Shown here piece by piece: positions 8,518 to 53,665 of a stretch of DNA of 64,000 nucleotides (the stretch's first letter is position 1; each line of letters starts with the position of its first letter). The stretch covers positions 10,717 through 74,716 of the forward strand of contig CAYGFK010000001.1 in the NCBI GenBank assembly GCA_964349135.1. Reading direction: 5' to 3'. Made by a program: the position numbers and the translations under genes. The notes below the pieces were generated by a model. The model was given only the letters and a program-made list of their open reading frames with translations. It had not been told where the DNA came from and ran no database searches. The stretch is from an uncultured Candidatus Saccharibacteria bacterium. Its GTDB lineage: Bacteria > Patescibacteriota > Minisyncoccia > Phycocordibacterales > DSPV01.

Positions 8518-11500
8518 CTAAGACTGCACAGGTTTTGGTGTCTGGATGTCGAGTGTCTTCATTTTTTCGATGATGATGGACGTCTCGCCGTTTCGGTTCG
8601 AGACTCGTCCGCGGATAGCGATACAAGCTTCAGGTTGAATAAGTGATTGATATTCCTCGAATCCTTTCGGGAAGATGACGCACTCCACAGAACCTGAGAG
8701 GTCGCCGAGGCGTATAAAAGCCATTTGGTCGTTCTTTTTGGTGAAAAGCATCCGTATATCTTCGATAATACCACCGAGCACGACCTGCATACCTTCCCGA
8801 TACTCACTCTTCACTCGAGAAATATTCACCTCGCGCTTTTCGAGGATGGTTCTGAATTTATCGAGCGGGTGTCCTGAGATGTAGAGACCGAGTAGCTCCT
8901 TTTCCCATGCAAGTCTTTCGGCAAGCGGAGTTTCCGGTGTGCTGACGAGGCGAAGTTGGTTGTGTGAAGAATCTACGCCGAAAAGAGAGTTCTGGTTGCG
9001 TGCCCCGCTTGAGTATTCTTTATGGTAAGCGAGAAGTGCTTCAAGGTTACCCATAAGCGTCCCGCGTTCCCCGAAGAGGTCGAGTGCACCTGATTTAATG
9101 AGTGCTTCGAGCGATTTCTTATTGAGATTTTTATCTTGGACACGTTCGAGGAAGTCAGCAAGCGACGCATACACACCTCCTTTCTTACGTTCCTCGATAA
9201 TGCTCTTGGCGATGCCCTCGCCGAAATTTTTGATGGTCGTGAGGCCGAAGCGAATGGTGTCGACCGTTACGGTACCTGTTCCTGCTCTTACCACGGAGAA
9301 TCCGGCGAAACTTTCGTTGATGTGGGGTGGGAGTACGGGGATGGCCATGCGTTTACACTCGGTGATAATCTCTCCTATCTTTTCGATGTCGCCTGAATCG
9401 GCAGTAAGTACCGCCGACATATAAATAGCAGGATAGTTTGCTTTCATGTAGGCGGTTTGGTAGGCGACTCGTCCGTAGCTTGCCGCATGTGCTTTGTTGA
9501 ATCCGTAGGCCGCGAATGGTTCGATGAGATGCCAGAGTTCCTCGGCTCTCTGGGATGAGAGGCCGTTTTTTTGGAACCCTTCAATGAGTTTTTCTTTCTG
9601 GGCGGCCATTTCTGCCGGGATTTTCTTTCCCATTGCTTTGCGCAGTTTGTCGGCTTCAAGCCATGAGTAGCCTGCGAGTCTGATGGCGATAAGCATGACG
9701 TCGTCTTGATACGTGATGACGCCGAATGATTGAGACAAGATATCTTCCAGGCGCGGGTCAAGGTAGGAAACGAGGCGTGGATTATGCTTGCGTTCAATGT
9801 AGCGGGGAATCGACTCCATAGGGCCCGGACGATAAAGCGCGACCATGGCATTGATATCGTAGATGCTTGAAGGTTTCAGGTCTTTGAGATAACGAGTCAT
9901 GCCTGAGCCACCGAGTTGGAATACGCCGATGGTCTCTCCGCGCGCAAGCATTTCATAGGTTTTTATGTCGCCGAGCGGTATGTTTTCGATGTCTACCGTT
10001 ATGCCAAGAATGGCTTGTACGCGGTGCACGGCATCTGCGAGGATGGCGAGGTTTTTGATGCCAAGAAAATCGAACTTGAGAAGTCCCGCATCTTCGACTG
10101 CATGCATGTCATATTGCGTGATGACTTTACCTTCGCCTTTTGGGTCGTATTGCAGAGGAACGTAGTCGGTGATGGCCGTTGGGGAAATGACGACACCGGC
10201 CGCATGGACGCTGATATGTCGCGCGCATCCCTCCACTTTTTTTGCCATCGCGATAATGTCTTTTGTGGCTTTATCTTTCTGCGCTAACTTCTTGAGTTCG
10301 GGAATCATTTCAAGTGCGCGCTCGATGGACATGGGGAATCCTTGCGAACCGAAAGGAATAAGTTTCGCAATTTGGTCACCTTTCGCGTAGTCATGGCCAA
10401 GTGCACGCGCAACATCACGCACACTTCCGCGTGCCATCATGGTGCCGAAGGTCCCAATTTGGGCGACTTTATCGGCGCCATATTTCTCGCGTACATAGGC
10501 AATCATATCGTCTCGTCTATTATCGGCGATATCCATGTCGATATCGGGAGCCGAAGGGCGTTCCGGGTTGAGAAATCGTTCGAACGGGAGTTTGTAGGCA
10601 AGCGGGTCGACCGTAGTAATGTAGGTGAGATAGGAAACGAGCGACCCTCCGGCGCTTCCGCGCGTGGTGCTCAAGATATTGTGCGTTCGGGCATAGGCAA
10701 GAAGGTCGGCGACGACAAGAAAATAAGGCGAGTACCCTTTCTTTTTAATGATATCAAGTTCGTATTCAATACGTTTTTCGACTTCCGGTGTCTTCTCCAT
10801 TTTTCGTTCGGTAAGTCCTGCGTACGTTTTTTCCCGGAGTTCTTGGTCATGACTTTTTCCCTTTTCGGTTTTGTAGTCAGGAAAGACCCATGTACCGAGT
10901 TCAAGCGAGAGCGAACATCGGTCGACGATTTTTTGATTGTTTGAGAGCGCGTCCGGAACATCACTAAAGAGCTCAGCGATTTTCTCTTGCGTTAAAAACG
11001 ATAGGTCAAGTCCGTTGTCTCGAACGGAGATTTCTCCGTAATCGGGATTATTCTGTACGGAGAGAAGTGTTTCGTGCGCTCGTTTATCGTCAGGCGTAAG
11101 GTAGTAGATATCATGTCCTGCAACGAGGGGGACATCCTCTTCTTTTGCAAAATCAGTAAGGTCGGGGATATCAAAATTTGGGACTTCGGGATGGCGGGTA
11201 ATCTCAAGAAAGAGATTTTTCTTGCCGAAGATTTCTCGTAATCCCATGAGTTTTTCTCTGGCTTTCGCTCGGTCCTTGTTTTTGAGTGCCTGTGCAATAT
11301 CCCCGAAGTAGGCAGGGCTGATGGCGATGAGGCCGTCCGCGTATCTCTCCAAGAGCTCCATGTCTACGCGCGGGCGGTAGTAGAAACCTTCAAGATGTGC
11401 AGCCGTGACGAGCTTGATAAGGTTTTGGTAGCCCGCTTTATTCTCAGCCAGGAGCACAAGGCGACCGCGTCGATTATCAACTCCTGTTTGCTTGTCGGTT

Positions 11501-11721
11501 CGTAAGCGGGCTGCGGTATAGACCTCGACTCCGATGATTGGTTTCAGTCCTTCTTTTTTACAGGATTTGTAGAACTCAAGCGCCCCGTAGAGGTTGCCGA
11601 GGTCGGTGAGCGCAAGCGCTTCCATGCCATTGTTTTTTGCTGCGGCAATGAGCTCTCCTATCTTAGGTAGGGCGGAGAGTAGAGAGTAATGGGAGTGAGT
11701 ATGTAGGTGGGTGAATTTCAC
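8518..11721 (-). CDS. dnaE: DNA polymerase III alpha subunit
   Basis: PHP domain (FTHLHTHSHYSLL), polymerase core, and a C-terminal OB region. Start set at the GTG (VKFTHLH) preceded by GGAGG. The 19-aa extension in the track ORF (MPIITYCR...) reads through the RBS. Confidence 0.93.
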   Translation of the reverse strand: MKFTHLHTHSHYSLLSALPKIGELIAAAKNNGMEALALTDLGNLYGALEFYKSCKKEGLKPIIGVEVYTAARLRTDKQTGVDNRRGRLVLLAENKAGYQNLIKLVTAAHLEGFYYRPRVDMELLERYADGLIAISPAYFGDIAQALKNKDRAKAREKLMGLREIFGKKNLFLEITRHPEVPNFDIPDLTDFAKEEDVPLVAGHDIYYLTPDDKRAHETLLSVQNNPDYGEISVRDNGLDLSFLTQEKIAELFSDVPDALSNNQKIVDRCSLSLELGTWVFPDYKTEKGKSHDQELREKTYAGLTERKMEKTPEVEKRIEYELDIIKKKGYSPYFLVVADLLAYARTHNILSTTRGSAGGSLVSYLTYITTVDPLAYKLPFERFLNPERPSAPDIDMDIADNRRDDMIAYVREKYGADKVAQIGTFGTMMARGSVRDVARALGHDYAKGDQIAKLIPFGSQGFPMSIERALEMIPELKKLAQKDKATKDIIAMAKKVEGCARHISVHAAGVVISPTAITDYVPLQYDPKGEGKVITQYDMHAVEDAGLLKFDFLGIKNLAILADAVHRVQAILGITVDIENIPLGDIKTYEMLARGETIGVFQLGGSGMTRYLKDLKPSSIYDINAMVALYRPGPMESIPRYIERKHNPRLVSYLDPRLEDILSQSFGVITYQDDVMLIAIRLAGYSWLEADKLRKAMGKKIPAEMAAQKEKLIEGFQKNGLSSQRAEELWHLIEPFAAYGFNKAHAASYGRVAYQTAYMKANYPAIYMSAVLTADSGDIEKIGEIITECKRMAIPVLPPHINESFAGFSVVRAGTGTVTVDTIRFGLTTIKNFGEGIAKSIIEERKKGGVYASLADFLERVQDKNLNKKSLEALIKSGALDLFGERGTLMGNLEALLAYHKEYSSGARNQNSLFGVDSSHNQLRLVSTPETPLAERLAWEKELLGLYISGHPLDKFRTILEKREVNISRVKSEYREGMQVVLGGIIEDIRMLFTKKNDQMAFIRLGDLSGSVECVIFPKGFEEYQSLIQPEACIAIRGRVSNRNGETSIIIEKMKTLDIQTPKPVQS

Positions 11722-11778
11722 GTTGCCTCCATTATACCCGAATCCATCACAGGACCTGCAGTACGTTATAATGGGCAT

Positions 11779-12378
11779 ATGATGAGGCTCGTCGGTGTAG
11801 ATGAAGTGGGTCGAGGTCCTGTTGCGGGGCCGGTGACGGTGTGCGCCGTGATTCTCCGGCGTTCTCTTCCGCGCGGATTCTTTACCGGTATACGTAACTC
11901 AAAAGCACTTACTGAGACGGCACGGCTTGCGTGGTATCGGAAGGCACGTGAGGCACGCACGAAAGCGTTCCTCCAGTTTGCTGTTGCATCACGGAGCGCG
12001 AATTTCATTGACCGACGGGGGATTGCCAGTGCGCTACGTGCATCGGTCGCGAGTGCGCTGAAGAGACTTGAATGTAAACCGTCCGAAGCACAGATTTTTC
12101 TCGACGGCAGTTTGTATGCGCCCGTCGTCTATAAAAATCAGAAAACAATAGTTCGAGGTGACGAGAAGGTGCCACTTATCGCGCTTGCGTCCATTATTGC
12201 CAAGGTGCACCGTGACAGGCGTATGAAGCGGCACGCCAAACGGTTCCCCGAATATGGCTTTGATGCGCATGTTGGCTATGGGACACCCGCGCACTACCAT
12301 GCCATACGTGCGCATGGGCCATGTAAACTCCATCGGATAAGCTTTCTTACCATACTGTTGCAGAATAAGCGTTCGTGA
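11779..12378 (+). CDS. rnhB: Ribonuclease HII
   Basis: VGVDEVGRGPVAGPV motif at the N-terminus. Start moved to the internal MMRLVG; the track ORF start overlaps dnaE. Confidence 0.88.
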   Translation: MMRLVGVDEVGRGPVAGPVTVCAVILRRSLPRGFFTGIRNSKALTETARLAWYRKAREARTKAFLQFAVASRSANFIDRRGIASALRASVASALKRLECKPSEAQIFLDGSLYAPVVYKNQKTIVRGDEKVPLIALASIIAKVHRDRRMKRHAKRFPEYGFDAHVGYGTPAHYHAIRAHGPCKLHRISFLTILLQNKRS

Positions 12379-12394
12379 GGTATACTCTTTCCCA

Positions 12395-12625
12395 ATGGTA
12401 GTACGAATGCGAGCAACCCGTGGACACACCGGCAATCGCCGGAGTCATCATGCGCTCAAGGAGCCGCGTCTTTCTGCGTGCGCTTCCTGTGGGACTTCGC
12501 ATGTACGCCATCGCGTGTGCCCGAACTGCGGTAAATACCGTGGCCGGGAAGTCATCAATGTCGCTCTCCATGCGGAGAAGCGCTTGAAGAAACAGAAAGC
12601 GCGCGAGAAGGAAATGGTGAAGTAG
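12395..12625 (+). CDS. rpmF: 50S ribosomal protein L32 (C-terminal basic extension)
   Basis: RRSHHAL motif and a Zn ribbon C..C...CPNCG. Confidence 0.8.
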   Translation: MVVRMRATRGHTGNRRSHHALKEPRLSACASCGTSHVRHRVCPNCGKYRGREVINVALHAEKRLKKQKAREKEMVK

Positions 12626-12675: not shown

Positions 12676-13593
12676 ATGGCAAACAGGCACCTTTCACGTT
12701 CAGTCGCACTGCAGACCCTCTTCGAGTGGGATACGAGGAATGTTCTCGAGAGTGATATGCAGAACGTTATGGAGCGCAACATCATTGAGTTCGCGCCGGG
12801 TCTTGGCGACTCTGATTTTGCAGAAAGACTTATCAGTACCGTGCTCGGGAAGCATACCGACCTCGATACTATTATTCAAAAAGCGGCACCCGATTGGCCG
12901 CTCGAAAAGATTTCAACGGTAGACCGCAACGTCCTTCGTATAGGGCTTGCGGAACTTTTATTCTCGGACAGAAAAGAAGTCCCGGCTAAAGTGGCTATCA
13001 ATGAAGCGATTGAGCTTGCGAAGACGTTTGGTGGCGAGAACAGTGGCAAGTTTGTCAACGGTGTGCTCGGTAGCGTTTATAAAGAGCTTGGCGAGCCGGG
13101 AAAAGATGAAGAGTCGAAGCATAAAAAGAATCAAATCACGCTTCAGCGTTTAGCGGGTGCTATTGTGTACGCGCAACACTCTGGAGCAACGTACGTTGCC
13201 TTGGTGCACGATGTGTTCGGACACTGGACCCTTTCGAAGGGAGGTGTTGAAGAAGGTGAAGACTTGGAGAAGGGCGTTGTGCGCGAGCTCAAGCAGGAAC
13301 TCGGTCTCAAGCATCTTAAGGTGAAGGACCGTTTGGGCGAGAACCAGTATATGGCGAGCCATCCTGAAAAAGGGAAACTACTGAAACAGGTCTCGTACTT
13401 TCTTGTTGAGTCGAAATTCGAGGACATTAAACTTGAAGAGAAGGGGGGGCTCGATGACGCGCGTTGGTTTAAGCTTGCCGATATCGTGGACCTCAATTTT
13501 TACGATGATATCTTGCCAATTGTGACGAAGGCGGTTACTATGCTCCTTGCCGTCGGTACAGGCGGTAAGAGGAAGAAGAACGTTACCAAGTAA
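12676..13593 (+). CDS. nusB: NusB antitermination factor fused to a C-terminal Nudix hydrolase domain
   Basis: Residues 1-140 match NusB (VPAKVAINEAIELAKTFGGENSGKFVNGVL). Residues about 160-300 carry the Nudix box GGVEEGEDLEKGVVRELKQELGL. It is one continuous 305-aa ORF. Confidence 0.8.
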   Translation: MANRHLSRSVALQTLFEWDTRNVLESDMQNVMERNIIEFAPGLGDSDFAERLISTVLGKHTDLDTIIQKAAPDWPLEKISTVDRNVLRIGLAELLFSDRKEVPAKVAINEAIELAKTFGGENSGKFVNGVLGSVYKELGEPGKDEESKHKKNQITLQRLAGAIVYAQHSGATYVALVHDVFGHWTLSKGGVEEGEDLEKGVVRELKQELGLKHLKVKDRLGENQYMASHPEKGKLLKQVSYFLVESKFEDIKLEEKGGLDDARWFKLADIVDLNFYDDILPIVTKAVTMLLAVGTGGKRKKNVTK

Positions 13594-13663
13594 TCTGATT
13601 TGGAAGAGAAAGGGCCTCGCCACCTCTCGGGTGTCGGTTCGTTTCTTCTCCGGATCCACACGT

Positions 13664-14353
13664 ATGGATTTTAAAGAATTTGAGCGTCGCGCGAATGTTT
13701 CGTTCCGCGACCAGGCGTTGTTGAGGCAGGCATTTACGCATCGTTCATACCTCAACGAGCACAAGAATTCAGGACTCGAGCACAATGAACGCCTCGAGTT
13801 TTTGGGCGATGCGGTACTTGAGCTAGTGGTGACCGAACATCTCTTTTCGAAATATCCAAACTATCCGGAGGGCGATATGACATCGTTGCGCGCTTCCGTG
13901 GTAAACGCCGATGCACTTTCGGAAGTTGCAACAGAAGTTGGCATGAATGATTTTCTTTTACTCTCACGTGGTGAAGCGAAAGATAAGGGTCGCGCACGAC
14001 GTTATATTCTCGCGAATACCTTTGAAGCGTTTGTCGGTGCGCTGTTCCTCGACCAGGGATACAATGCCTCACGCGATTTTGTTGCCGCACATTTGTTTCC
14101 GATGCTTGAAAAAATCGTCGCGGACGGTTTATGGACAGACTCGAAGAGTTCGTTTCAAGAAGAAGCGCAAGAACGCGCAGGGGTAACACCTGCATATCAA
14201 ACGCTTTCAGAAGAAGGCCCGGACCACGATAAAATATTCACCGTTGGCGTTTTTGTTGGTGACGAGCAAGTGGCTTTAGGTAAGGGAAAATCGAAACAAG
14301 AGGCTGAACAGGTCGCCGCACGCGAGGGCCTGAAGGCTAAGGGCTGGGATTAG
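13664..14353 (+). CDS. rnc: Ribonuclease III
   Basis: ERLEFLGDAVLEL signature and a C-terminal dsRBD. Start taken at MDFKEF inside the track ORF. Confidence 0.9.
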   Translation: MDFKEFERRANVSFRDQALLRQAFTHRSYLNEHKNSGLEHNERLEFLGDAVLELVVTEHLFSKYPNYPEGDMTSLRASVVNADALSEVATEVGMNDFLLLSRGEAKDKGRARRYILANTFEAFVGALFLDQGYNASRDFVAAHLFPMLEKIVADGLWTDSKSSFQEEAQERAGVTPAYQTLSEEGPDHDKIFTVGVFVGDEQVALGKGKSKQEAEQVAAREGLKAKGWD

Positions 14354-14361
14354 AGAGAGTA

Positions 14362-14391
14362 AAAAGCGGGACGAACAGCCCGCTTTTTTGT
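14362..14391 (+). terminator. Rho-independent terminator after rnc
   Basis: agcgggACGAACAGcccgct followed by T6. Confidence 0.65.
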
Positions 14392-14418: not shown

Positions 14419-16677
14419 ATGTATCTGAAGGGCCTTGAGCTCTCCGGTTTCAAGTCGTTTGCCAAGAAGACTTCTCTTGGCTTTTCTTCGCCTATCACTT
14501 CTATTGTCGGTCCGAACGGTTCGGGAAAATCAAATGTGGCGGAAGCATTCAGGTTTGTTCTTGGCGAGCAATCCATCAAGTCGCTTCGTGGAAAACGTGG
14601 TGAAGACCTCATCTTTAACGGTTCACGCACCATTGGTCGGCAAAATCGCGCTTCCGTAAAGATTACTCTCGACAATTCAAAGCGTCTGCTCGACATTGAT
14701 TTCGATGAGGTGACCATCGAGCGTATCGTGCATCGCGACAATAATAATGAGTATCTCATCAACGGTAGCCAGGTTCGTCTTAAAGATATTCTGGAGCTTT
14801 TGGCGCAGGCGCATATGGGTCCGACAGGACACCACATCATTTCGCAGGGTGAAGCAGACCGAATTCTTAACGCGAATCTTAAAGAACGGCGACTTATGGT
14901 TGAGGACGCTCTCGGACTCAAGATTTACCAATTCAAGCGTACCGAATCTGAACGCAAGCTTGAGCGGACGCGTGAGAATATCACACAAGTCGAGTCACTG
15001 CGTCGCGAACTTGCGCCACATCTACGGTTTCTGAAGAAACAGGTTGAGAAGATAGAGAAGGCTAAAGAGCTTAAGAAAGCGCTTGCAGAACTTTACGTCG
15101 AATATCTGTCGCTTGAGCGCGCGTACCTTAGAGAGGCCGAACAGACGCTTTCTCGGGAATCGGAAGAGCCAACCAAGAAACTTGCCGAACGTGAGCATGA
15201 CCTTGCGCGCGCAAAGAAGATGCTTGAGCGCTCAAAGACGGGAGATGATAAAAGCACGCAGGTACTTGCAAGCGAGAAGGCGCTTAGGGATTTGCGGAAT
15301 CAAAAAGATGAGCTTTTGCGGGAAGTAGGGAGACTTGAAGGAGAACTTTCTGCCGAAGACCGACGATTGAAAAAACTTACGGATGAGAACGAAGCCGATA
15401 CGCACAAAACAGTCCCGCTTTCCGAAGTTCGGGCACTTGCCGGCGATATTGGGTCCCGGCTCGCTCGGGTTGAAGCAGTGTCTGATGTGTCGATGTTTCG
15501 GCAATTCATTTCCGAGATGAAAACAGTGCTTTCAGGTTTTCTCAAGCGTTTTGAAAGTGCTACGTCTACCGGCGCGCTTGAAGATGCGGTTCGGGGAATT
15601 GAACGTATCAAGACAGAGAAAGAAGAGGTGTCCGGGCGTGTCATTGCGATACAGGAGCGTGAGCGCGAGGAGCATGGAAAGTACGAGGCGCTTCGAGCTG
15701 ATATTGAAAAGGAGAAAGATGAAGGACGTGATGCCGAGCGGGAGATATTTCGTATCATGGCCGAGCAGAATGAGCTACGCGCCATTCTCAATAGTATCAA
15801 GGGCCGAGAGGCGTCTCTTTTGCTTGAGCGGGAAGAGTATAAACGAGAAGAACAAGAAGCCGTAGCCCTCGTAGGTCCGGAAACCGTTCGACGTTCGCAT
15901 GAGGCGGAGGTACCGTCTGTGCTTTCTGACCGCACCACACAACATGAACGTCGTCGGAATCTTGAGAAGATGAAAATTCGTCTTGAGGAGACGGGAAGCG
16001 GAGCCAGTGAAGAAACATTGAAGGAGTTTGAAGAAGTCTCACAACGGGATGCGTTTCTTGAACGTGAAGTCGGCGACCTGAATCGTTCGGCGGAATCCCT
16101 CGAAGTCCTCATCAAGGATTTAACTGCCAGACTCGACATTGAATTCAAGGAGGGAGTGAGGAAGATAAATGTGCAATTTGAAGAATTCTTTAAGCTCATG
16201 TTTGGTGGCGGAAGCGCTTCGCTTGAGGTTGTTCGTCCGGAGAAGCGACGCTCAAGCATGGCGGATGAGTTGTTCGCGACTGAGGCGGGCGCCCTGGTCC
16301 CTCAGGATGAAGAGGAGACTGAAGAGGGAATTGAGATACGAGTAAATTTGCCTCACAAGAAGATTCGCTCGCTTGAAGTCCTCTCGGGTGGTGAGCGTGC
16401 ACTTACCTCTATCGCCCTTCTATTCTCGATTTCACAGGTGAATCCGCCCCCGTTTATTATTCTCGATGAAACTGACGCGGCGCTTGATGAAGCCAACTCA
16501 AAGAAATACGGCGATATGATTGAAAACCTTTCGAGCTATTCTCAACTCGTGCTCATTACCCACAATCGCGAGACGATGTCTCGTGCCAGCGTGCTCTATG
16601 GAGTGACTATGGGGCAGGACGGGATATCGAAGCTTCTCTCTATTCATTTCGACGAGGCCGTGAAAGTTGCCAAATAA
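14419..16677 (+). CDS. smc: SMC-family chromosome-segregation ATPase, short form (752 aa) with no recognisable hinge
   Basis: N-terminal head with GPNGSGKSN. C-terminal head with LSGGERALTSIAL and ILDETDAALD. The middle is all charged coiled coil. Confidence 0.8.
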   Translation: MYLKGLELSGFKSFAKKTSLGFSSPITSIVGPNGSGKSNVAEAFRFVLGEQSIKSLRGKRGEDLIFNGSRTIGRQNRASVKITLDNSKRLLDIDFDEVTIERIVHRDNNNEYLINGSQVRLKDILELLAQAHMGPTGHHIISQGEADRILNANLKERRLMVEDALGLKIYQFKRTESERKLERTRENITQVESLRRELAPHLRFLKKQVEKIEKAKELKKALAELYVEYLSLERAYLREAEQTLSRESEEPTKKLAEREHDLARAKKMLERSKTGDDKSTQVLASEKALRDLRNQKDELLREVGRLEGELSAEDRRLKKLTDENEADTHKTVPLSEVRALAGDIGSRLARVEAVSDVSMFRQFISEMKTVLSGFLKRFESATSTGALEDAVRGIERIKTEKEEVSGRVIAIQEREREEHGKYEALRADIEKEKDEGRDAEREIFRIMAEQNELRAILNSIKGREASLLLEREEYKREEQEAVALVGPETVRRSHEAEVPSVLSDRTTQHERRRNLEKMKIRLEETGSGASEETLKEFEEVSQRDAFLEREVGDLNRSAESLEVLIKDLTARLDIEFKEGVRKINVQFEEFFKLMFGGGSASLEVVRPEKRRSSMADELFATEAGALVPQDEEETEEGIEIRVNLPHKKIRSLEVLSGGERALTSIALLFSISQVNPPPFIILDETDAALDEANSKKYGDMIENLSSYSQLVLITHNRETMSRASVLYGVTMGQDGISKLLSIHFDEAVKVAK

Positions 16678-34226: not shown

Positions 34227-35180
34227 TTACTTGAGAGGTAGAGCGTGAGTTACCAGGAAATCCCGAAGGGTTACGTCGCCCATGCCGAAGCCGACGGTGG
34301 GAACTGGCTCAGCGTCAAATAGTTCCATGAGGTTGTCATACCGACCCCCTCCGAAGAGTGAGCGACGGTTTTCTTCATGGGTGTCGAATACTTCGAATAC
34401 CATACCGGTATAGTAGTCGAATCCTCGAACAAGGGTCGGTTCATAGATGACGTTAGTGATACCTGCGGAGGTGAGTGCTTCAAGGACATCCGTTGGTCCG
34501 TTGCTTGCACTGAGCACGAACTCTTTGTTGGAGAACTTTGTCCATTCCGCGGTGAATTCCTCGTCGGTGATTTTGTTCTTCTTATCTATGAGTCGCATCG
34601 CTTCGGGTAGGGTTAGCGGGTCCTTGAGAAGTCCCGATATCTCCTTTTCGCTGTGTGCGCGGTTATTAATCTTGATTTGAAAATCCTGCTCCTTGGCACC
34701 AAACGCTTTCATAAGGTCGTAGGCGAGCTTTATGATTTCAACGTCGGCTTCTGTCCCTGCGATTCCCATGAGGTCGCAGTTGAGTTGCCAGTGTTCACGA
34801 CGTCGGCCGCGTTGAGGCCTCTCGTACCGGAAACAATTGGCGATGGTGAACCAGCGAAGAGGGAACTCTCTTTGGAGTTCTCGTCGTTTGGCGGCGACCA
34901 TACGAGCAAGACTCGGAGTCATTTCAGGTCTCAAGGCCACCTCACGGTCTCCTTTATCGCGGAAGAGGTACATTTGGTCGTTGACGATTTCGTCGCTTCC
35001 CTTGCGTCGGTAAAGTTCGGCGTACTCAAGAATCGATGAGCTGTACTCAGCGTAACCGGCTTTTTCGACCGTTTTTCGCCACGTAGAGAAGATATAGTTT
35101 TGGACTGCCATATCCTCGGGGTAAAAATCCCTAACGCCTTTATAGGGCTCTGTAGAAAGTTTATTTACTTTTTCTGACAT
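34227..35180 (-). CDS. hisS: Histidyl-tRNA synthetase catalytic core with no anticodon-binding domain (317 aa; HisZ-like architecture)
   Basis: GVRDFYPED, ALRPEMTPSLARMV, motif 2 FRYERPQRGRRREHWQ, motif 3 GGGRYDNL. The ORF ends right after motif 3 and the next gene is the unrelated exonuclease. Confidence 0.75.
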   Translation of the reverse strand: MSEKVNKLSTEPYKGVRDFYPEDMAVQNYIFSTWRKTVEKAGYAEYSSSILEYAELYRRKGSDEIVNDQMYLFRDKGDREVALRPEMTPSLARMVAAKRRELQREFPLRWFTIANCFRYERPQRGRRREHWQLNCDLMGIAGTEADVEIIKLAYDLMKAFGAKEQDFQIKINNRAHSEKEISGLLKDPLTLPEAMRLIDKKNKITDEEFTAEWTKFSNKEFVLSASNGPTDVLEALTSAGITNVIYEPTLVRGFDYYTGMVFEVFDTHEENRRSLFGGGRYDNLMELFDAEPVPTVGFGMGDVTLRDFLVTHALPLK

Positions 35181-46055: not shown

Positions 46056-47456
46056 ATGGATTCGTACGGTAAATTTATTACACGAGAATTGCCGAGCCCA
46101 CCACACTGGAGTAAGGCGCTTGGTGTGGGTATTGTCGTCATGGGGCTTGCAATCGGAACCGGTGAGCTTATTCTCTGGCCTCACCTTATTGCAAAGCATG
46201 GACTCTCTCTTCTGTGGGCCGCGCTCGTCGGTATTACGTTCCAATATTTCATCAATCAAGAAGTGGCGAGGCATGCACTGGCGACTGGGGAAAGTTTTTT
46301 CACTTCAAGTTCACGTGTCGTAGGGTGGCTTCCGCCTTTTTGGCTCGGTTCAGCCGTCCTACTCTATATTTGGCCGGGGTGGGCGGCCGCACTTGGTACG
46401 ACGCTTAAAGAGTTGTTCGGGTTTGGGCACTATCTTGGATGGGCCACGGCCAGCTTGGCGCTGATTTTAATTCTTACCTTCACCGGTCGGGCCGCGTACA
46501 CCGTCCTTGAGAGGACACTCAAGATTGTCGTACCCGTCTTTTTCGTCTTACTTGTCATTACGAGCTTTTTGACGCTTTCCTTCTCTGATATCCAGGAGGC
46601 CTTCTCTGGGTTGCTGAATTTCGGTCATTTCCCAGAAGATATTGATATGTCTGTGCTTCTCGGTGCCATTGTTTTTGCCGGAGCCGGCGGCCTCTTAAAC
46701 CTTTGTGTATCACTTTGGTATCGAGATAAACAAATTGGTATGGGTGCGTACGCGGGTCGCATTCTCAACCCGATTACAGGGAAAACGGTGTCAGCTTCTT
46801 TTGAGGGATATAGGTTTGAACCAACTGAAGAAAATCTTTCCCGATGGAAGAAATGGATGTCTTTTGTACGAATCGACCAGGGAGTCATCTTTTGGTTCTT
46901 AGGATTGATTACACTGGTCCTTTTGAGTTTAAACGCCTATGTGGTACTGACGCCACTTGGTTTAGTTCCCGAAGGATTGCAGGTTGCTGTCGTGCAAGCG
47001 GAGATTTTTGGCGCCAATTGGGGGCGATTCGGTTTCGACCTGTTTTTGGTCATGGCGTTTCTCATGCTTTTTTCGGTTATGTGGACGGTGGTTGATGCAT
47101 TCACACGTATTGTCTCCGACATTCTTTATGTAAACGCGCGAACCGGCCCATTTTATTCACGTCTATCATGGCTTTCTCGTGTTCCGCTTAGCACGCTCTA
47201 CTATACGCTCATTGTCGGGATTGTCCTTGCGAGCACGCTTCTGCTTTCTTTTGAGCAACCGCTCGTACTTCTGACGACGAGCGCTGTACTTGGGGGGCTT
47301 ACCATGGCTGTCTATACGCCGATGCTTTTGTATCTGAATAATCGACGTCTGCCAAAAGAAGTGAGGCCGGGATTTTTCAGCAACGCAATGCTCGTTCTCG
47401 CATCCCTTTTTTACATAAGCTTTTCGGCGTATATTTTGGTAACCACATTTACATAA
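46056..47456 (+). CDS. Divergent Nramp-family transporter (11 TM) without the canonical DPGN/MPH metal-site motifs
   Basis: TM1 region LAIGTGELILWPHL...SLLW aligns with MntH IDPGNFATNIQAGA...LLW. The TM6 region is AGAGG instead of MPH. Confidence 0.55.
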   Translation: MDSYGKFITRELPSPPHWSKALGVGIVVMGLAIGTGELILWPHLIAKHGLSLLWAALVGITFQYFINQEVARHALATGESFFTSSSRVVGWLPPFWLGSAVLLYIWPGWAAALGTTLKELFGFGHYLGWATASLALILILTFTGRAAYTVLERTLKIVVPVFFVLLVITSFLTLSFSDIQEAFSGLLNFGHFPEDIDMSVLLGAIVFAGAGGLLNLCVSLWYRDKQIGMGAYAGRILNPITGKTVSASFEGYRFEPTEENLSRWKKWMSFVRIDQGVIFWFLGLITLVLLSLNAYVVLTPLGLVPEGLQVAVVQAEIFGANWGRFGFDLFLVMAFLMLFSVMWTVVDAFTRIVSDILYVNARTGPFYSRLSWLSRVPLSTLYYTLIVGIVLASTLLLSFEQPLVLLTTSAVLGGLTMAVYTPMLLYLNNRRLPKEVRPGFFSNAMLVLASLFYISFSAYILVTTFT

Positions 47457-50214: not shown

Positions 50215-52095
50215 TTATGTAAAGCTCTCCGGGTCTACCGATAATTCTGCCGATGGGGGAAGTGAGCGGAGTATTGAGAGAATTCGTTCATTGGGCCACT
50301 CTTTTGCGGGTATCTTCATGACGCCGGATAGACCAGATTTGTTCTTTGCTTGTTTAAGAAAGACCGGGAAGATGTCTATTTCTTGAGGTGCAAGCGCTTG
50401 GACAAGTGCGTGCATCTCTTTACTGATTACCTCTTTCTGGCCGGAAAGGGTTATCTTTATCGGCACGGAAAATGGGGGATAGAGTAGTGTTTTGCGTAGT
50501 GCCAATTCGCCCTGAAAGAACGAGCTCAGGCTTCCTTCCGCAAAACTTGCAAGCGCATGAGAGTTTTCTGTTCGTGTTTGAATGATAAATTCTCGTTCCG
50601 CGAATTCAATTAAGTTTCCAAGGAGATAGCTGACACGTTCGTTTATGCGAAAATCAGGTATTGAGAAGAGTTCGTCAATCGAGGCGATAGCAACTGTACC
50701 CACGGGAGCTAAGAGATACGGGAGCATGAATTCGGTTCCAACAAGAACACTTCCGGGGGAGTTATAAAATTTCTCGATAAGCGCTTTCGCCTGTTTTCTG
50801 TTGGTTACCGATTCAGAATCCATTCTGATGACGACAAGGTCGTCGAAGACCTCATGGAGTTCTCGTTCGACGAGTTCAGTCCCGATGCCGAACGTGGCGA
50901 GTTTCCAACTGTTGCAGGAGGCGCACCTAATCGACGCATCTATTTTTTCTCCGCACCGGTGACAGAGGAAAAACCGGTTTTTTTCAGAAGTTCCGTGAAG
51001 TACGGTCGGGTGACCACATACGCTACAGGAAAGCAGGGTGCCACAATCTCCGCATATGGTTGTTGGGGCGAGCCCTTTTCTCCCGGCAAATACAATGACA
51101 CGGTCTGCAGAGGCTCGAGCGGTACGTATCTTTTCAATGAGTTCATCCGAGAGTGCGCGAGGCACACCTTTCAGACTTGGTTTATACGGCTTCATGTCGA
51201 TAAGGGAGACTCGAGATTTGGTGCTACGTCTCCATTTCAGCGGGACGAGTTCATCGATTTCATGCTCGTAGTACCGTTCAATAAGCGCGCTTGATAAAAT
51301 GGTATCTCCGAAAATGAGGCGTGCATGGGCGTGCCGGGCGTACGTACGTATGAAGAAACGGAAATCGATGAAAGGTCGGTTTCGTTGTTTATATGACGCA
51401 GAATTCTCGCGCTCTACGATAATGGTCCCGGCGCGGTCTGCGGCAATGCCGATGAATCCGGGAGTTGAGACCATAAGGAGCGGATGCGTTTCTTTATATA
51501 TTCGTTCGATATCAAGTGTCAGTGCGCGTAGTGTCTTTTTGCTGTGCAGCAGGAGCGAATACTCTTCGATACCTTTTGAGAGTTTTTCGAGAGCCGTTTC
51601 TGCTTCTTGTATCGTCGGGACGAGGAAGAGCACAGACTCTTTATGCCTGAATGCTTCGCGGATGAGAGAGCGGTATTGGCTGAACCTCTCCTCACTGTCG
51701 TTTTGGATTGCCTGCAGGGTCGGACGGGCAGTAGGCGCCGGCTCATGACGGGCTTCCGGGATTTTTTTGATGAGATTGAGCGGAAGAAGCGCGGTAAGTG
51801 TCGCTCCGAACGGAGCCGCATAGAATCGAGAGGTCTCCCGGGCTGCGGTAATGAAGGCGTCGCTTGAGAAACGCGGAGAGATGATTTTCCCAACTTTCTT
51901 CATTGAGAATGACGACGATTTAATTGACGTCTTTTCTTCACGGGCCTTTTTTGCCCCGATAACGAGTCCTGTCACGCTCTTCGAGCGAAGAGGGATATGC
52001 ACAAGACTGCCGATAGGTATTTCCTGCGCGCTGAAATACGTGAGGGTGTCGGCCCACACGCTTTTCTCGAGCGGGATGACCTCTATAATATGCAT
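50215..52095 (-). CDS. priA: Primosomal protein N' (replication restart helicase)
   Basis: Helicase core and Zn-binding CGDCGTLLSCSVCGHP...CHRCG...CASCNS. Confidence 0.9.
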   Translation of the reverse strand: MHIIEVIPLEKSVWADTLTYFSAQEIPIGSLVHIPLRSKSVTGLVIGAKKAREEKTSIKSSSFSMKKVGKIISPRFSSDAFITAARETSRFYAAPFGATLTALLPLNLIKKIPEARHEPAPTARPTLQAIQNDSEERFSQYRSLIREAFRHKESVLFLVPTIQEAETALEKLSKGIEEYSLLLHSKKTLRALTLDIERIYKETHPLLMVSTPGFIGIAADRAGTIIVERENSASYKQRNRPFIDFRFFIRTYARHAHARLIFGDTILSSALIERYYEHEIDELVPLKWRRSTKSRVSLIDMKPYKPSLKGVPRALSDELIEKIRTARASADRVIVFAGRKGLAPTTICGDCGTLLSCSVCGHPTVLHGTSEKNRFFLCHRCGEKIDASIRCASCNSWKLATFGIGTELVERELHEVFDDLVVIRMDSESVTNRKQAKALIEKFYNSPGSVLVGTEFMLPYLLAPVGTVAIASIDELFSIPDFRINERVSYLLGNLIEFAEREFIIQTRTENSHALASFAEGSLSSFFQGELALRKTLLYPPFSVPIKITLSGQKEVISKEMHALVQALAPQEIDIFPVFLKQAKNKSGLSGVMKIPAKEWPNERILSILRSLPPSAELSVDPESFT

Positions 52096-53618
52096 TAGAG
52101 CTCTCGCAAAATCTTAATTTTCGCACCAAGCTTTGCGAGTCGCTCGGCGATGTCTTCGTAACCGCGATTGATGGAATAGATATTTCTGAGAATCGATGTC
52201 CCTTCTGCACCGAGCATACCGATGAGTACGATGGCTGCGGGGCGGAGCGCCGGAGGGCAGATTATCTCATTTGCTTTGAGTTTTGTCGGACCGTTGATAA
52301 AGACGCGGTGAGGGTCGGCGAGAATAATGTCGGCACCGAGGCGGTCAAGTTCTTTGTAATGAATAGCGCGCGCTTCGTAGACCCAATCATGAATGAAGGT
52401 TTGTCCTTTCGCTTGAGTTGCGATGATGGCGAAGAAGGGAAGGTTGTCTATGTTCAGACCGGGGTATGGTCGAGCTTCGATTTTTTCGTCGAGTGCGGTG
52501 AGTTTTGAAGGAAATGTCTCAATGTCGACAAGCGCGGTCTGTCCGTTCTCAGACATATACGGTTTGCTCTTTTTGAATCGAAATCCCATCTTCTTGAGTT
52601 TCAGGAGCTCAAGCTCAAGAAAATGTATCGGACAGCGTTTTATGGTCAGGTTTGATTTGGTCACGATAGCAACCGCAAGCATGAACATGGATTCAATAGG
52701 GTCTTCGCTTAGGTGGTAGCGCGCCTTCACCTCAATATCCGGTTTGCCGTGCACCACGAGCGTGGTTGTGCCTATTCCGTCTACCTGTACGCCGAGCTCA
52801 TGAAGGAAGAAACAGAGGTCCTGAATTTGATAGTTCGCCGATGCGTATTTGATGGTTGTGGTTCCTTTAAACCGTGCGGCCGCCATCAGGACGTTTTCGG
52901 TTACCGTATCGCCTGATTCGTAGAGAATGATTTCACGACTCTTTGGTTTGCCGACCGTGACTCGGTGACCGGCACCAGAGGTTTTAATAGAAACGCCAAG
53001 GTTTTCAAGAGCGTAGAAATGCGGGCGCACTGTGCGTTTGCCAAGCTTACAACCTCCCGATTGCGGAAGAAAGAAGCTTTTTGCGATATGCATCAAAGGC
53101 CCGATGAGCATGATGACACTCCGTGTTTTTTGCGCTGATGCCACATTGATTGTAGAAAGTGAGAGTTTAGACGGCGGTTTGATGATAAGGTCGCTGTTTA
53201 CCCATCGAACTGAAACACCGATAGATTGCAGAACTTCAATCATGCGATACACCTCTTCTATTCTCGGCACGCTTACGAGCGTTGTTTCTCCTTTGTTGAG
53301 GAGTGCGGCGCAAATAAGACCCATCGCGGCATTTTTCGATGTCTTTGTGGTGATAGTTCCTGAGAGTGGGTGTCCGCCTTCGATTTCGAGATTGATGGCA
53401 CCATCGCCGATATGAATGATGTCTTTATTGAGAATGTTGCTGATGCGGGAGAGGAGGGAGGCGCTGACGTTTTGCGTTCCACTCTCGATGCGAGCGACAG
53501 CGCTCTGTGTCGTACCCAGACGCTTTGCAAACGCGTCTTGAGTGACACCACGCTCTTCGCGGAGATTTTTAATCAAGGAACCCAGCACAGAGAGCTGTTT
53601 GTTAGGTTTAGTAGGCAT
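52095..53618 (-). CDS. murA: UDP-N-acetylglucosamine 1-carboxyvinyltransferase fused to an N-terminal XRE-family HTH domain
   Basis: The first ~70 aa form a Cro/C1 HTH (LREERGVTQDAFAKRLGTTQSAVARIESG). The rest aligns end-to-end with MurA, including active-site Cys (GGCKLG) and C-terminal IYSINRGYEDIAERLAKLGAKI. The ATG at 53618 follows an in-frame TTG. Confidence 0.85.
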   Translation of the reverse strand: MPTKPNKQLSVLGSLIKNLREERGVTQDAFAKRLGTTQSAVARIESGTQNVSASLLSRISNILNKDIIHIGDGAINLEIEGGHPLSGTITTKTSKNAAMGLICAALLNKGETTLVSVPRIEEVYRMIEVLQSIGVSVRWVNSDLIIKPPSKLSLSTINVASAQKTRSVIMLIGPLMHIAKSFFLPQSGGCKLGKRTVRPHFYALENLGVSIKTSGAGHRVTVGKPKSREIILYESGDTVTENVLMAAARFKGTTTIKYASANYQIQDLCFFLHELGVQVDGIGTTTLVVHGKPDIEVKARYHLSEDPIESMFMLAVAIVTKSNLTIKRCPIHFLELELLKLKKMGFRFKKSKPYMSENGQTALVDIETFPSKLTALDEKIEARPYPGLNIDNLPFFAIIATQAKGQTFIHDWVYEARAIHYKELDRLGADIILADPHRVFINGPTKLKANEIICPPALRPAAIVLIGMLGAEGTSILRNIYSINRGYEDIAERLAKLGAKIKILREL

Positions 53619-53665
53619 CAAGACATTATAGCATAGATGCTATATCTTGCATATCTGGAATCTGG
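53619..53665 (-). promoter_or_regulatory. Putative promoter with an overlapping 18-bp palindromic operator (TATAGCAT-AG-ATGCTATA, 53627-53644) immediately upstream of HTH-murA
   Basis: Minus-strand reading is ATGCAA-17-TATAAT-GTCTTG-ATG. The palindrome covers the spacer and the -10 box. Confidence 0.45.

Follow-up and report, generated by a model that had tools for sequence, protein, structure and literature searches.

A fusion of NusB to a Nudix-fold domain next to the RNase III gene in Paceibacteria

The nusB::nudix gene and its NusB half

In this study, we report a two-domain NusB protein encoded on contig CAYGFK010000001.1 (NCBI GenBank assembly GCA_964349135.1) of an uncultured Candidatus Saccharibacteria bacterium, of which positions 10,717 to 74,716 were analyzed; this whole stretch of 64,000 nucleotides (nt) is referred to as the window, and coordinates are given in it. 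The gene, here designated nusB::nudix, joins a NusB antitermination domain to a Nudix-fold domain in one open reading frame (ORF) and is followed by rnc, the gene of RNase III (Table 1). What is new is a NusB that carries an accessory, partly pseudo-enzymatic Nudix module, and this architecture is clade-defining. The gene had been singled out in a prediction made from the letters of the window without database searches (the original prediction). Its description as a single ORF of 305 amino acids (aa) with a complete NusB domain followed by a Nudix box was borne out, since the Pfam scan found both domains: NusB at residues 7-136 (E value 5e-33, profile positions 3-133 of 133) and NUDIX at residues 159-274 (E value 2.9e-15, 56.9 bits, cutoff 21.1). 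The NCBIfam equivalog model TIGR01951 (nusB) scored 122.7 bits, above its cutoff of 88.35.

Table 1. Features of the nusB::nudix locus, with positions in the 64-kb window.
Feature	Position	Strand	Residues or length	Basis
nusB::nudix fusion gene	12676..13593	+	305 aa, ATG start	ORF list; Pfam NusB and NUDIX; TIGR01951 above cutoff; single ORF in at least 593 genomes
NusB domain, all-helical	12676..13089	+	aa 1-138	Pfam; alignment to solved NusBs; AlphaFold2; Foldseek
Linker	13090..13149	+	aa 139-158	G-E-P-G-K-(D/E)-E motif, then variable-length Lys/Glu-rich spacer
Nudix-fold domain, Ap4A-hydrolase-like	13150..13560	+	aa 159-295	Pfam NUDIX; PDB sequence and fold matches
Nudix box GGVEEGEDLEKGVVRELKQELGL	13240..13308	+	aa 189-211	Sequence; Gln207 codon at 13294-13296
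rnc (RNase III)	13664..14353	+	229 aa, ATG start	TIGR02191, 249.5 bits against a cutoff of 166
Intrinsic-terminator-like hairpin 3' of rnc	14361..14388	+		10-bp stem with 5 GC pairs, then a T-run
rpmF (ribosomal protein L32), upstream neighbour	12395..12625	+		Pfam Ribosomal_L32p, E value 1.7e-15
rnhB (RNase HII), leading gene in the co-oriented block	11707..12378	+		Pfam RNase_HII, E value 1.2e-32

The N-terminal half is a genuine NusB. It could be aligned end to end with the NusB proteins of Thermotoga, Aquifex, E. coli and M. tuberculosis, and in the alignment to solved NusBs a helix pair (VPxKVAINEAIELAK..FVNGVL) was highly conserved. An AlphaFold2 model of the fusion was built from a 24-sequence alignment and had a mean predicted local distance difference test (pLDDT) of 82; in it the NusB helices span residues 4-138 with a pLDDT of about 85-95. 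Foldseek matched this half to 3R2D_B, the NusB of a NusB-NusE-RNA complex, with a template modelling (TM) score of 0.83 and a root-mean-square deviation (rmsd) of 2.0. No second NusB-like ORF was noticed within the window.

At its start, residues 139-145 (13090-13110), the linker carries the near-invariant sequence G-E-P-G-K-(D/E)-E. Among 350 unique fusion proteins, G139, E140, P141, G142 and K143 were each conserved in 325-338, and the motif was followed by a Lys/Glu-rich spacer of 8-39 aa (median 21); these proteins, like the other sequence samples described below, are the best-scoring matches of larger lists and not a random draw from the clade. The NusB proteins of Thermotoga, Aquifex and E. 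coli lack the GEPGK motif at their C-terminal ends, and in the fusions it may serve for docking or as a hinge. In the AlphaFold2 model, the linker is predicted to be disordered, with a pLDDT below 50 for residues 141-152, and residues 155-295 formed an alpha/beta Nudix domain. Given the predicted TM score (pTM) of 0.51, the model gives no confident packing between the NusB and Nudix domains.

The Nudix half and its degenerate box

The Nudix half is closest to enzymes of the type that hydrolyzes diadenosine tetraphosphate (Ap4A) and related ApnA, and is not RppH-like. Its best PDB sequence matches were the Ap4A hydrolases of Chlamydia (CT771), Aquifex, C. elegans and human, together with NudI and T. 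thermophilus Ndx1 (E values 4e-6 to 4e-4). The top fold match was the Aquifex Ap4A hydrolase 3I7U (TM 0.89, rmsd 2.0 Å), followed by the mycobacterial ApnA hydrolase MutT1/Rv2985, CT771, NUDT2 and Ndx1; the Nudix domain of NrtR ranked 6th and RppH 49th. The best score among the NCBIfam RppH models (PRK00714), whose cutoffs range over 116-259, was 30.1 bits against a cutoff of 118, and in the PDB sequence search E. coli RppH matched the box alone (35 residues, E value 0.15). No second Nudix gene able to supply catalysis was found in the window, where the box of the fusion was the sole box-like motif.

The box string GGVEEGEDLEKGVVRELKQELGL quoted in the original prediction is present, but it is near-canonical and not canonical as had been stated. 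Compared with the signature GX5EX7REUXEEXGU, it reads G189...E195...R203-E204-L-K-Q207-E208-L-G210-L211 (RELKQE), so that Gln207 (signature position 19, codon CAG) replaces the leading Glu of the EE pair, a metal-binding residue. Hence the expectation that the C-terminal half holds the catalytic residues was right for four of the five positions (E195, R203, E204 and E208) and wrong for position 207. Since Q207 was also present in the closest relatives (P0004, P0005 and P0009, 78-80% identity), it is a fixed substitution and not a sequencing error. The RE-Glu position, E204 here, is the one altered in the E58A crystal form of human Ap4A hydrolase (4IJX, among the fold matches). The inactive RppH mutant E53A is reported to affect this position as well.

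Outside the box, the Nudix half contains the motif GHWTLSKG, with SKG for PKG, and in the sequence alignment to Ap4A hydrolases K188 corresponds to the phosphate-binding Lys of the HWTPPKG motif. Y276 aligns with Y121 of the C. elegans Ap4A hydrolase, and the placement of Y225 hinges on an alignment gap. In the C. elegans enzyme (1KTG), Y76 and Y121 reportedly stack the adenine.

Distribution and synteny of the fusion

A protein search returned at least 8000 candidates, and 120 of the 120 listed matches were proteins of about 300 aa with PF01029 and PF00293, all of them named plain 'NusB' by NCBI/JGI and derived from Patescibacteria/Paceibacterota. When each GTDB species was scanned through a single genome, at least 593 fusion loci were confirmed, belonging to Kaiser-, Zambryski-, Adler-, Yonath-, Taylor- and Lloydbacteria and to metagenome-assembled genomes of Parcubacteria, Paceibacteria and Minisyncoccia; the survey of related genomes that had been proposed thus recovered the fusion widely. 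A profile of divergent members gave at least about 8000 matches, all two-domain, and added Nomurabacteria; among the matches listed, only names of Paceibacteria, Nomurabacteria or Minisyncoccia type occurred. When the Nudix half alone was compared by HMMER with 1.84 billion representatives, 181 clusters were obtained at E≤1e-10, and 52 of the best 150 were two-domain, with Nudix identity down to about 30%.

The fusion is the standard form of NusB across the Paceibacteria/Parcubacteria. Its description as a non-standard architecture therefore stands for the characterized bacteria but not within this group. Since the same continuous frame recurs in 593 or more species-representative genomes and in at least 8000 protein clusters, a missed stop or a frameshift, for which positions 13100-13200 had been pointed out as the place to look, is excluded. 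With the same ORF in so many independent genomes and in thousands of metagenome contigs, and with a conserved junction motif, the joining of adjacent nusB and Nudix genes by a sequencing or assembly error or a missed stop has a negligible probability, and one locus (L083) shows the reverse case of a fused gene broken by a single TAA.

This locus (L083, positions 542-1459 of a 2.4-kb metagenome contig; protein P0133) was considered as an ancestral split pair of nusB and nudix genes and rejected. It appears to encode a NusB of 133 aa and a Nudix protein of 141 aa with the junction GAV*KELGEP, and is a fused gene in which one in-frame TAA takes the place of the invariant Tyr135, that is, a sequencing error or a pseudogene and not an ancestral split. 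No evidence of true split nusB/nudix forms was obtained, the other near stand-alone matches being fragments. The attachment to a bona fide NusB is of ancient origin and subject to purifying selection.

The gene order around the fusion was counted in 80 fetched loci. As predicted for the window, rnc was the next gene downstream; it directly followed the fusion in 79 of the 80 loci, the exception being a 1.4-kb contig, and also in L081, L082 and L083. The other neighbours were L32 upstream (75/80), RNase HII (67/80), an SMC-like gene (66/80) and dnaE on the opposite strand (60/80), and in the window dnaE likewise lies on the opposite strand. Highly divergent members with dead boxes had the same neighbourhood, with rnc 4-10 bp past the stop codon. 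In the window, the fusion gene and rnc are separated by 70 nt, with no terminator-like site comparable to the hairpin that follows rnc. The lack of a terminator before rnc and the strong hairpin and T-run after it are consistent with a rnhB-rpmF-nusB::nudix-rnc unit. The link in function that had been put forward, of the Nudix module to the transcription and processing of rRNA, is supported by the ancient fusion to NusB, the adjoining rnc gene and the shared unit.

A protein of different context, P0199 (577 aa; L084, 3605-5338), has a partial NusB-like segment and a C-terminal Nudix module. It lies outside the usual synteny, and its flanking genes, for an NB-ARC/AAA ATPase, a DDE_3 transposase and HEPN_Swt1, give it a neighbourhood that looks mobile or defence-type.

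Conservation of the pocket and loss of the catalytic glutamates

Mean pairwise identity was 0.73 for the NusB domain, 0.61 for the linker and 0.66 for the Nudix domain, and within the latter it was 0.77 for residues 159-188 and 0.54 for the box, which is the lowest-conservation segment of the whole protein. In the close family of 197 unique sequences with 60% identity or more, Glu occupied position 204 in 56%, position 207 in 66% and position 208 in 100% of the sequences. In a separate sample of 120, all seven signature positions were intact in 54 and all three Glu in 65, and the box variants KRIKEE and RKIKEE were common. Only 6 of 34 divergent full-length fusions had a complete signature and 7 all three Glu, and unrecognisable boxes (VSVVKREMGI, IKKIKSETNW, VKKIKEKLDV, LCDGIKNELNI) were found among them. 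In relatives, as many as six of the seven signature positions were degenerate, the first Gly excepted. By contrast, stand-alone distant relatives from the same search (140-175 aa) had a perfect signature in 22 of 23 cases (Fisher p = 1e-8 against the divergent fusions and p = 8e-7 against the close family).

In the 350 unique fusions, the RE-Glu (E16, E204 here) was kept in 205 (59%) and E19 in 247, and all three box Glu were intact in 159 (45%). The residues replacing E16 were K, A, R, V, G, I and S. Parsimony on a tree made from the non-box columns by the unweighted pair group method with arithmetic mean (UPGMA) required at least 58 changes at E16 and at least 55 at E19, but only 3 at E20 (E208). 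Other positions of the domain were nearly fixed: W184 and Y276 were found in all 350 proteins, K188, W264 and D179 in 349, Y225 in 348, and F181 and E208 in 347, with W184, K188, Y225, W264, Y276, D179 and F181 changing 0-2 times on the same tree. As the box Glu have been lost dozens of times while the domain was kept, the function for which the fused module is conserved and selected cannot be catalysis. From these patterns, selection on the Nudix domain is purifying and appears to act on the fold and on the nucleotide/phosphate pocket rather than on the residues that bind the catalytic metal.

A putative ligand-binding role of the module

We give about an even chance to the proposal that the conserved role of the module, judged from its sequence patterns, is the binding of a nucleoside-polyphosphate ligand, rather than its hydrolysis, within the NusB complex. 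With the pocket fixed and the catalytic Glu variable, binding is a more probable conserved role than catalysis of RppH type. In this proposal, the fusion would act as the NusB of the lineage, that is, the BoxA-RNA- and S10-binding subunit of the rRNA antitermination and processing complex, and the GEPGK motif and the flexible Lys/Glu-rich linker would tether to it a C-terminal Nudix module descended from an enzyme of Ap4A/ApnA-hydrolase type. The ligand would be a dinucleoside polyphosphate (NpnN), e.g., Ap4A, or the triphosphate or NpnN-capped 5' nucleotide of nascent pre-rRNA, held by the retained pocket of Lys188, Tyr225, Tyr276 and Glu208 plus Mg2+. The module would then modulate or anchor the NusB-containing complex, which would also promote RNase III processing. 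Hydrolysis would be an ancestral activity, surviving in some members and lost in many, and the protein of the window may retain a weak activity because E195, R203, E204 and E208 are kept, with Gln at position 207.

Several points weigh against this proposal. The argument is one of conservation patterns, and error in the UPGMA tree inflates the parsimony counts; the variety of residues replacing the box Glu is nevertheless proof enough of many events. Hydrolysis may be important in a large share of the family, as about 45% of the fusions still have all three Glu and E208 does not vary, and a smaller set of metal ligands could suffice for it. Several invariant residues, W184 among them, may belong to the fold core rather than to the pocket, the residues having been assigned to the pocket by sequence alignment to Ap4A hydrolases and not by superposition. 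The relative orientation of the two domains is likewise without a confident model.

Ap4A and other NpnN are made by aminoacyl-tRNA synthetases. It is conceivable, although we hold it to be somewhat unlikely, that the NusB of Paceibacteria is a ligand-responsive antitermination factor, whose Nudix module would sense NpnN or capture the 5'-ppp or NpnN-capped end of pre-rRNA and so tune the assembly of the antitermination/RNase III complex. Such a NusB would be a direct input of a nucleotide signal into rRNA synthesis, and to our knowledge no input of this kind is known in any model bacterium.

Among the other explanations, the Nudix fold could be a purely structural, ligand-free subunit for protein-protein contacts in the antitermination complex, comparable to SuhB. 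The persistence of the fold despite catalytic decay and the near-invariant GEPGK motif, which suggests a docking element, fit this explanation, and so does the stabilization of the E. coli rRNA transcription antitermination complex (rrnTAC) by recruitment of SuhB (bioRxiv 10.64898/2026.03.17.712431). We regard it as unlikely, because the most invariant Nudix residues (K188, Y225, Y276 and E208) appear to be those that line the nucleotide/phosphate site of Ap4A hydrolases and are common to active stand-alone enzymes, and because a new interface would more probably have left fusion-specific surface positions, of which few were found (F181, P230, L273 and D278).

The 5'-end trimming put forward in the original prediction would make the fusion an RppH-like 5'-pyrophosphohydrolase or decapper: NusB would bring the Nudix domain to nascent rRNA, where conversion of 5'-ppp or an Np4N cap to 5'-p would license processing or decay of the leader with RNase III. 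The Nudix fold with four of its catalytic residues, the tethering to a BoxA-binding factor in a conserved operon with rnc, and the trimming of PPP-RNA to P-RNA by NUDT2, itself of Ap4A-hydrolase type (PMC8616924), speak for it, and it is possible for the intact-box members, which make up about 45% of the family. However, the similarity to RppH is far below the family cutoffs and confined to the box, a metal-ligand Glu is replaced by Q207, the RE-Glu is replaced (K, A, R, V, G) in 41% of the fusions, and Glu losses recur while the domain and the synteny persist. Activity of this kind was therefore not supported, and we consider it quite improbable as the conserved function.

A housekeeping Ap4A/NpnN hydrolase could also have been fused to NusB for co-expression only, in a streamlined genome and without coupling to antitermination. 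The nearest sequence and fold relatives are indeed Ap4A/ApnA hydrolases, a single Nudix-box motif occurs in the window, and genome reduction in Patescibacteria favours gene fusions. Under this explanation, however, the catalytic box would be expected to be kept, as in the stand-alone relatives, and it is instead the least conserved and repeatedly lost segment; moreover, a neutral fusion would be expected to split over deep divergence, and the apparent splits are broken fusions or fragments. It is thus very doubtful.

Comparison with known systems

Characterized NusB proteins are single-domain and of about 130-150 aa; the full-length domain is common to them and to the fusion, and only the fusion adds the GEPGK motif, the flexible linker and a Nudix-fold domain of 140 aa. 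With the Ap4A/ApnA hydrolases (Aquifex 3I7U, which is aq_158, C. elegans 1KT9, human NUDT2, CT771, Ndx1 and MutT1/Rv2985), the module has in common HWT-x-x-KG, putatively phosphate-binding, and Glu208, and probably also Tyr residues at the positions that stack the adenine, and it differs from them by its attachment to NusB, by SKG for PKG and by its degenerate box. RppH is alike in its Nudix fold and in a possible RNA-end substrate, but the similarity is box-confined and the Glu set is incomplete in the fusion family.

A parallel in evolutionary terms is provided by NrtR. In this regulator, the Nudix signature has decayed in most members while binding of ADP-ribose is kept, and some members with an intact signature are active (PMC2330246). 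NrtR and the fusion both join a decayed-signature Nudix domain to a nucleic-acid-binding domain. They differ in that NrtR has a Nudix domain derived from ADP-ribose pyrophosphatase and a C-terminal winged-helix DNA-binding domain, whereas in the fusion a Nudix domain of Ap4A-hydrolase type is C-terminal to the RNA-binding NusB. By analogy, the fusion appears to follow an NrtR-like evolutionary path, as an analogue and not as a member of NrtR.

The 16S rRNA methyltransferase RsmB/Sun, like the fusion, combines a NusB-fold RNA-binding domain with an enzyme-fold domain in ribosome biogenesis, but the fusion has no methyltransferase domain and its NusB is equivalog-level, not a NusB-like targeting domain. 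An RsmB-like reading of the NusB half was rejected: the RsmB models scored 16-53 bits against cutoffs of 269-540 and matched the N-terminal region only.

SuhB is an enzyme-fold protein whose recruitment to the E. coli rrnTAC depends on NusB, in which it resembles the Nudix module; unlike the latter, it has an inositol-monophosphatase fold and is a separate, dimeric polypeptide. Its enzymatic activity is apparently dispensable for its role in the Nus complex (PMC4807359), a point on which no statement was found in PMC6614801. In addition, rrnTAC stimulates the processing that RNase III carries out co-transcriptionally (bioRxiv 10.64898/2026.03.17.712431).

Other features of the window

The window is rich in core information-processing genes (thrS-like, dnaE, rnhB, rpmF, rnc, smc-like, rpsP, rpoB, rpoC, dnaG, rpoD and an addA-like helicase-nuclease). 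The Rfam scan gave no matches at the gathering threshold in the 64 kb, that is, no rRNA leader or BoxA, tRNA, rRNA or other Rfam family, and ARAGORN found no tRNA or tmRNA. An SMC-like ORF lies 3' of rnc (14419-16677, +, 752 aa), and it was named only from an N-terminal Walker-A-like and a C-terminal LSGGE-type sequence and from synteny. Typical bacterial SMC proteins have about 1100-1200 aa, and the length of the window protein suggests a much shortened coiled coil.

A further unusual fusion of a DNA-binding domain to an enzyme is encoded by a 508-aa ORF (52095-53621, -), which has an XRE-type HTH_3 domain (17-68) and a full EPSP_synthase-family domain of MurA/AroA type (81-495). A 317-aa ORF resembling histidyl-tRNA synthetase (HisRS; 34227-35180, -) contains the class II core only, the anticodon-binding domain not being detected, and may represent either a HisZ-like paralogue or a shortened HisRS. 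The ORFs 1228-1995 (+, 255 aa) and 46056-47456 (+, 466 aa) had no Pfam match at E≤1e-5.

Implications

As a core factor of rRNA transcription and ribosome biogenesis, NusB is universal in bacteria and usually consists of a single domain. Full-text literature searches (NusB, Nudix, fusion, Parcubacteria, candidate phyla radiation) found no description of the NusB-Nudix architecture, and thousands of such two-domain proteins are present in public databases, with their Pfam domains precomputed and annotated as plain NusB. They also call for caution in annotation, as RppH-like activity is not to be inferred from a Nudix match alone. In the large and poorly understood Paceibacteria/Parcubacteria radiation, a Nudix module is permanently attached to NusB, and its fixed pocket together with its decaying catalytic residues is the mark of an enzyme that is becoming a module for binding. 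In these minimal genomes, the synthesis and processing of rRNA may thereby be coupled to nucleotide signals or to the status of RNA 5' ends.

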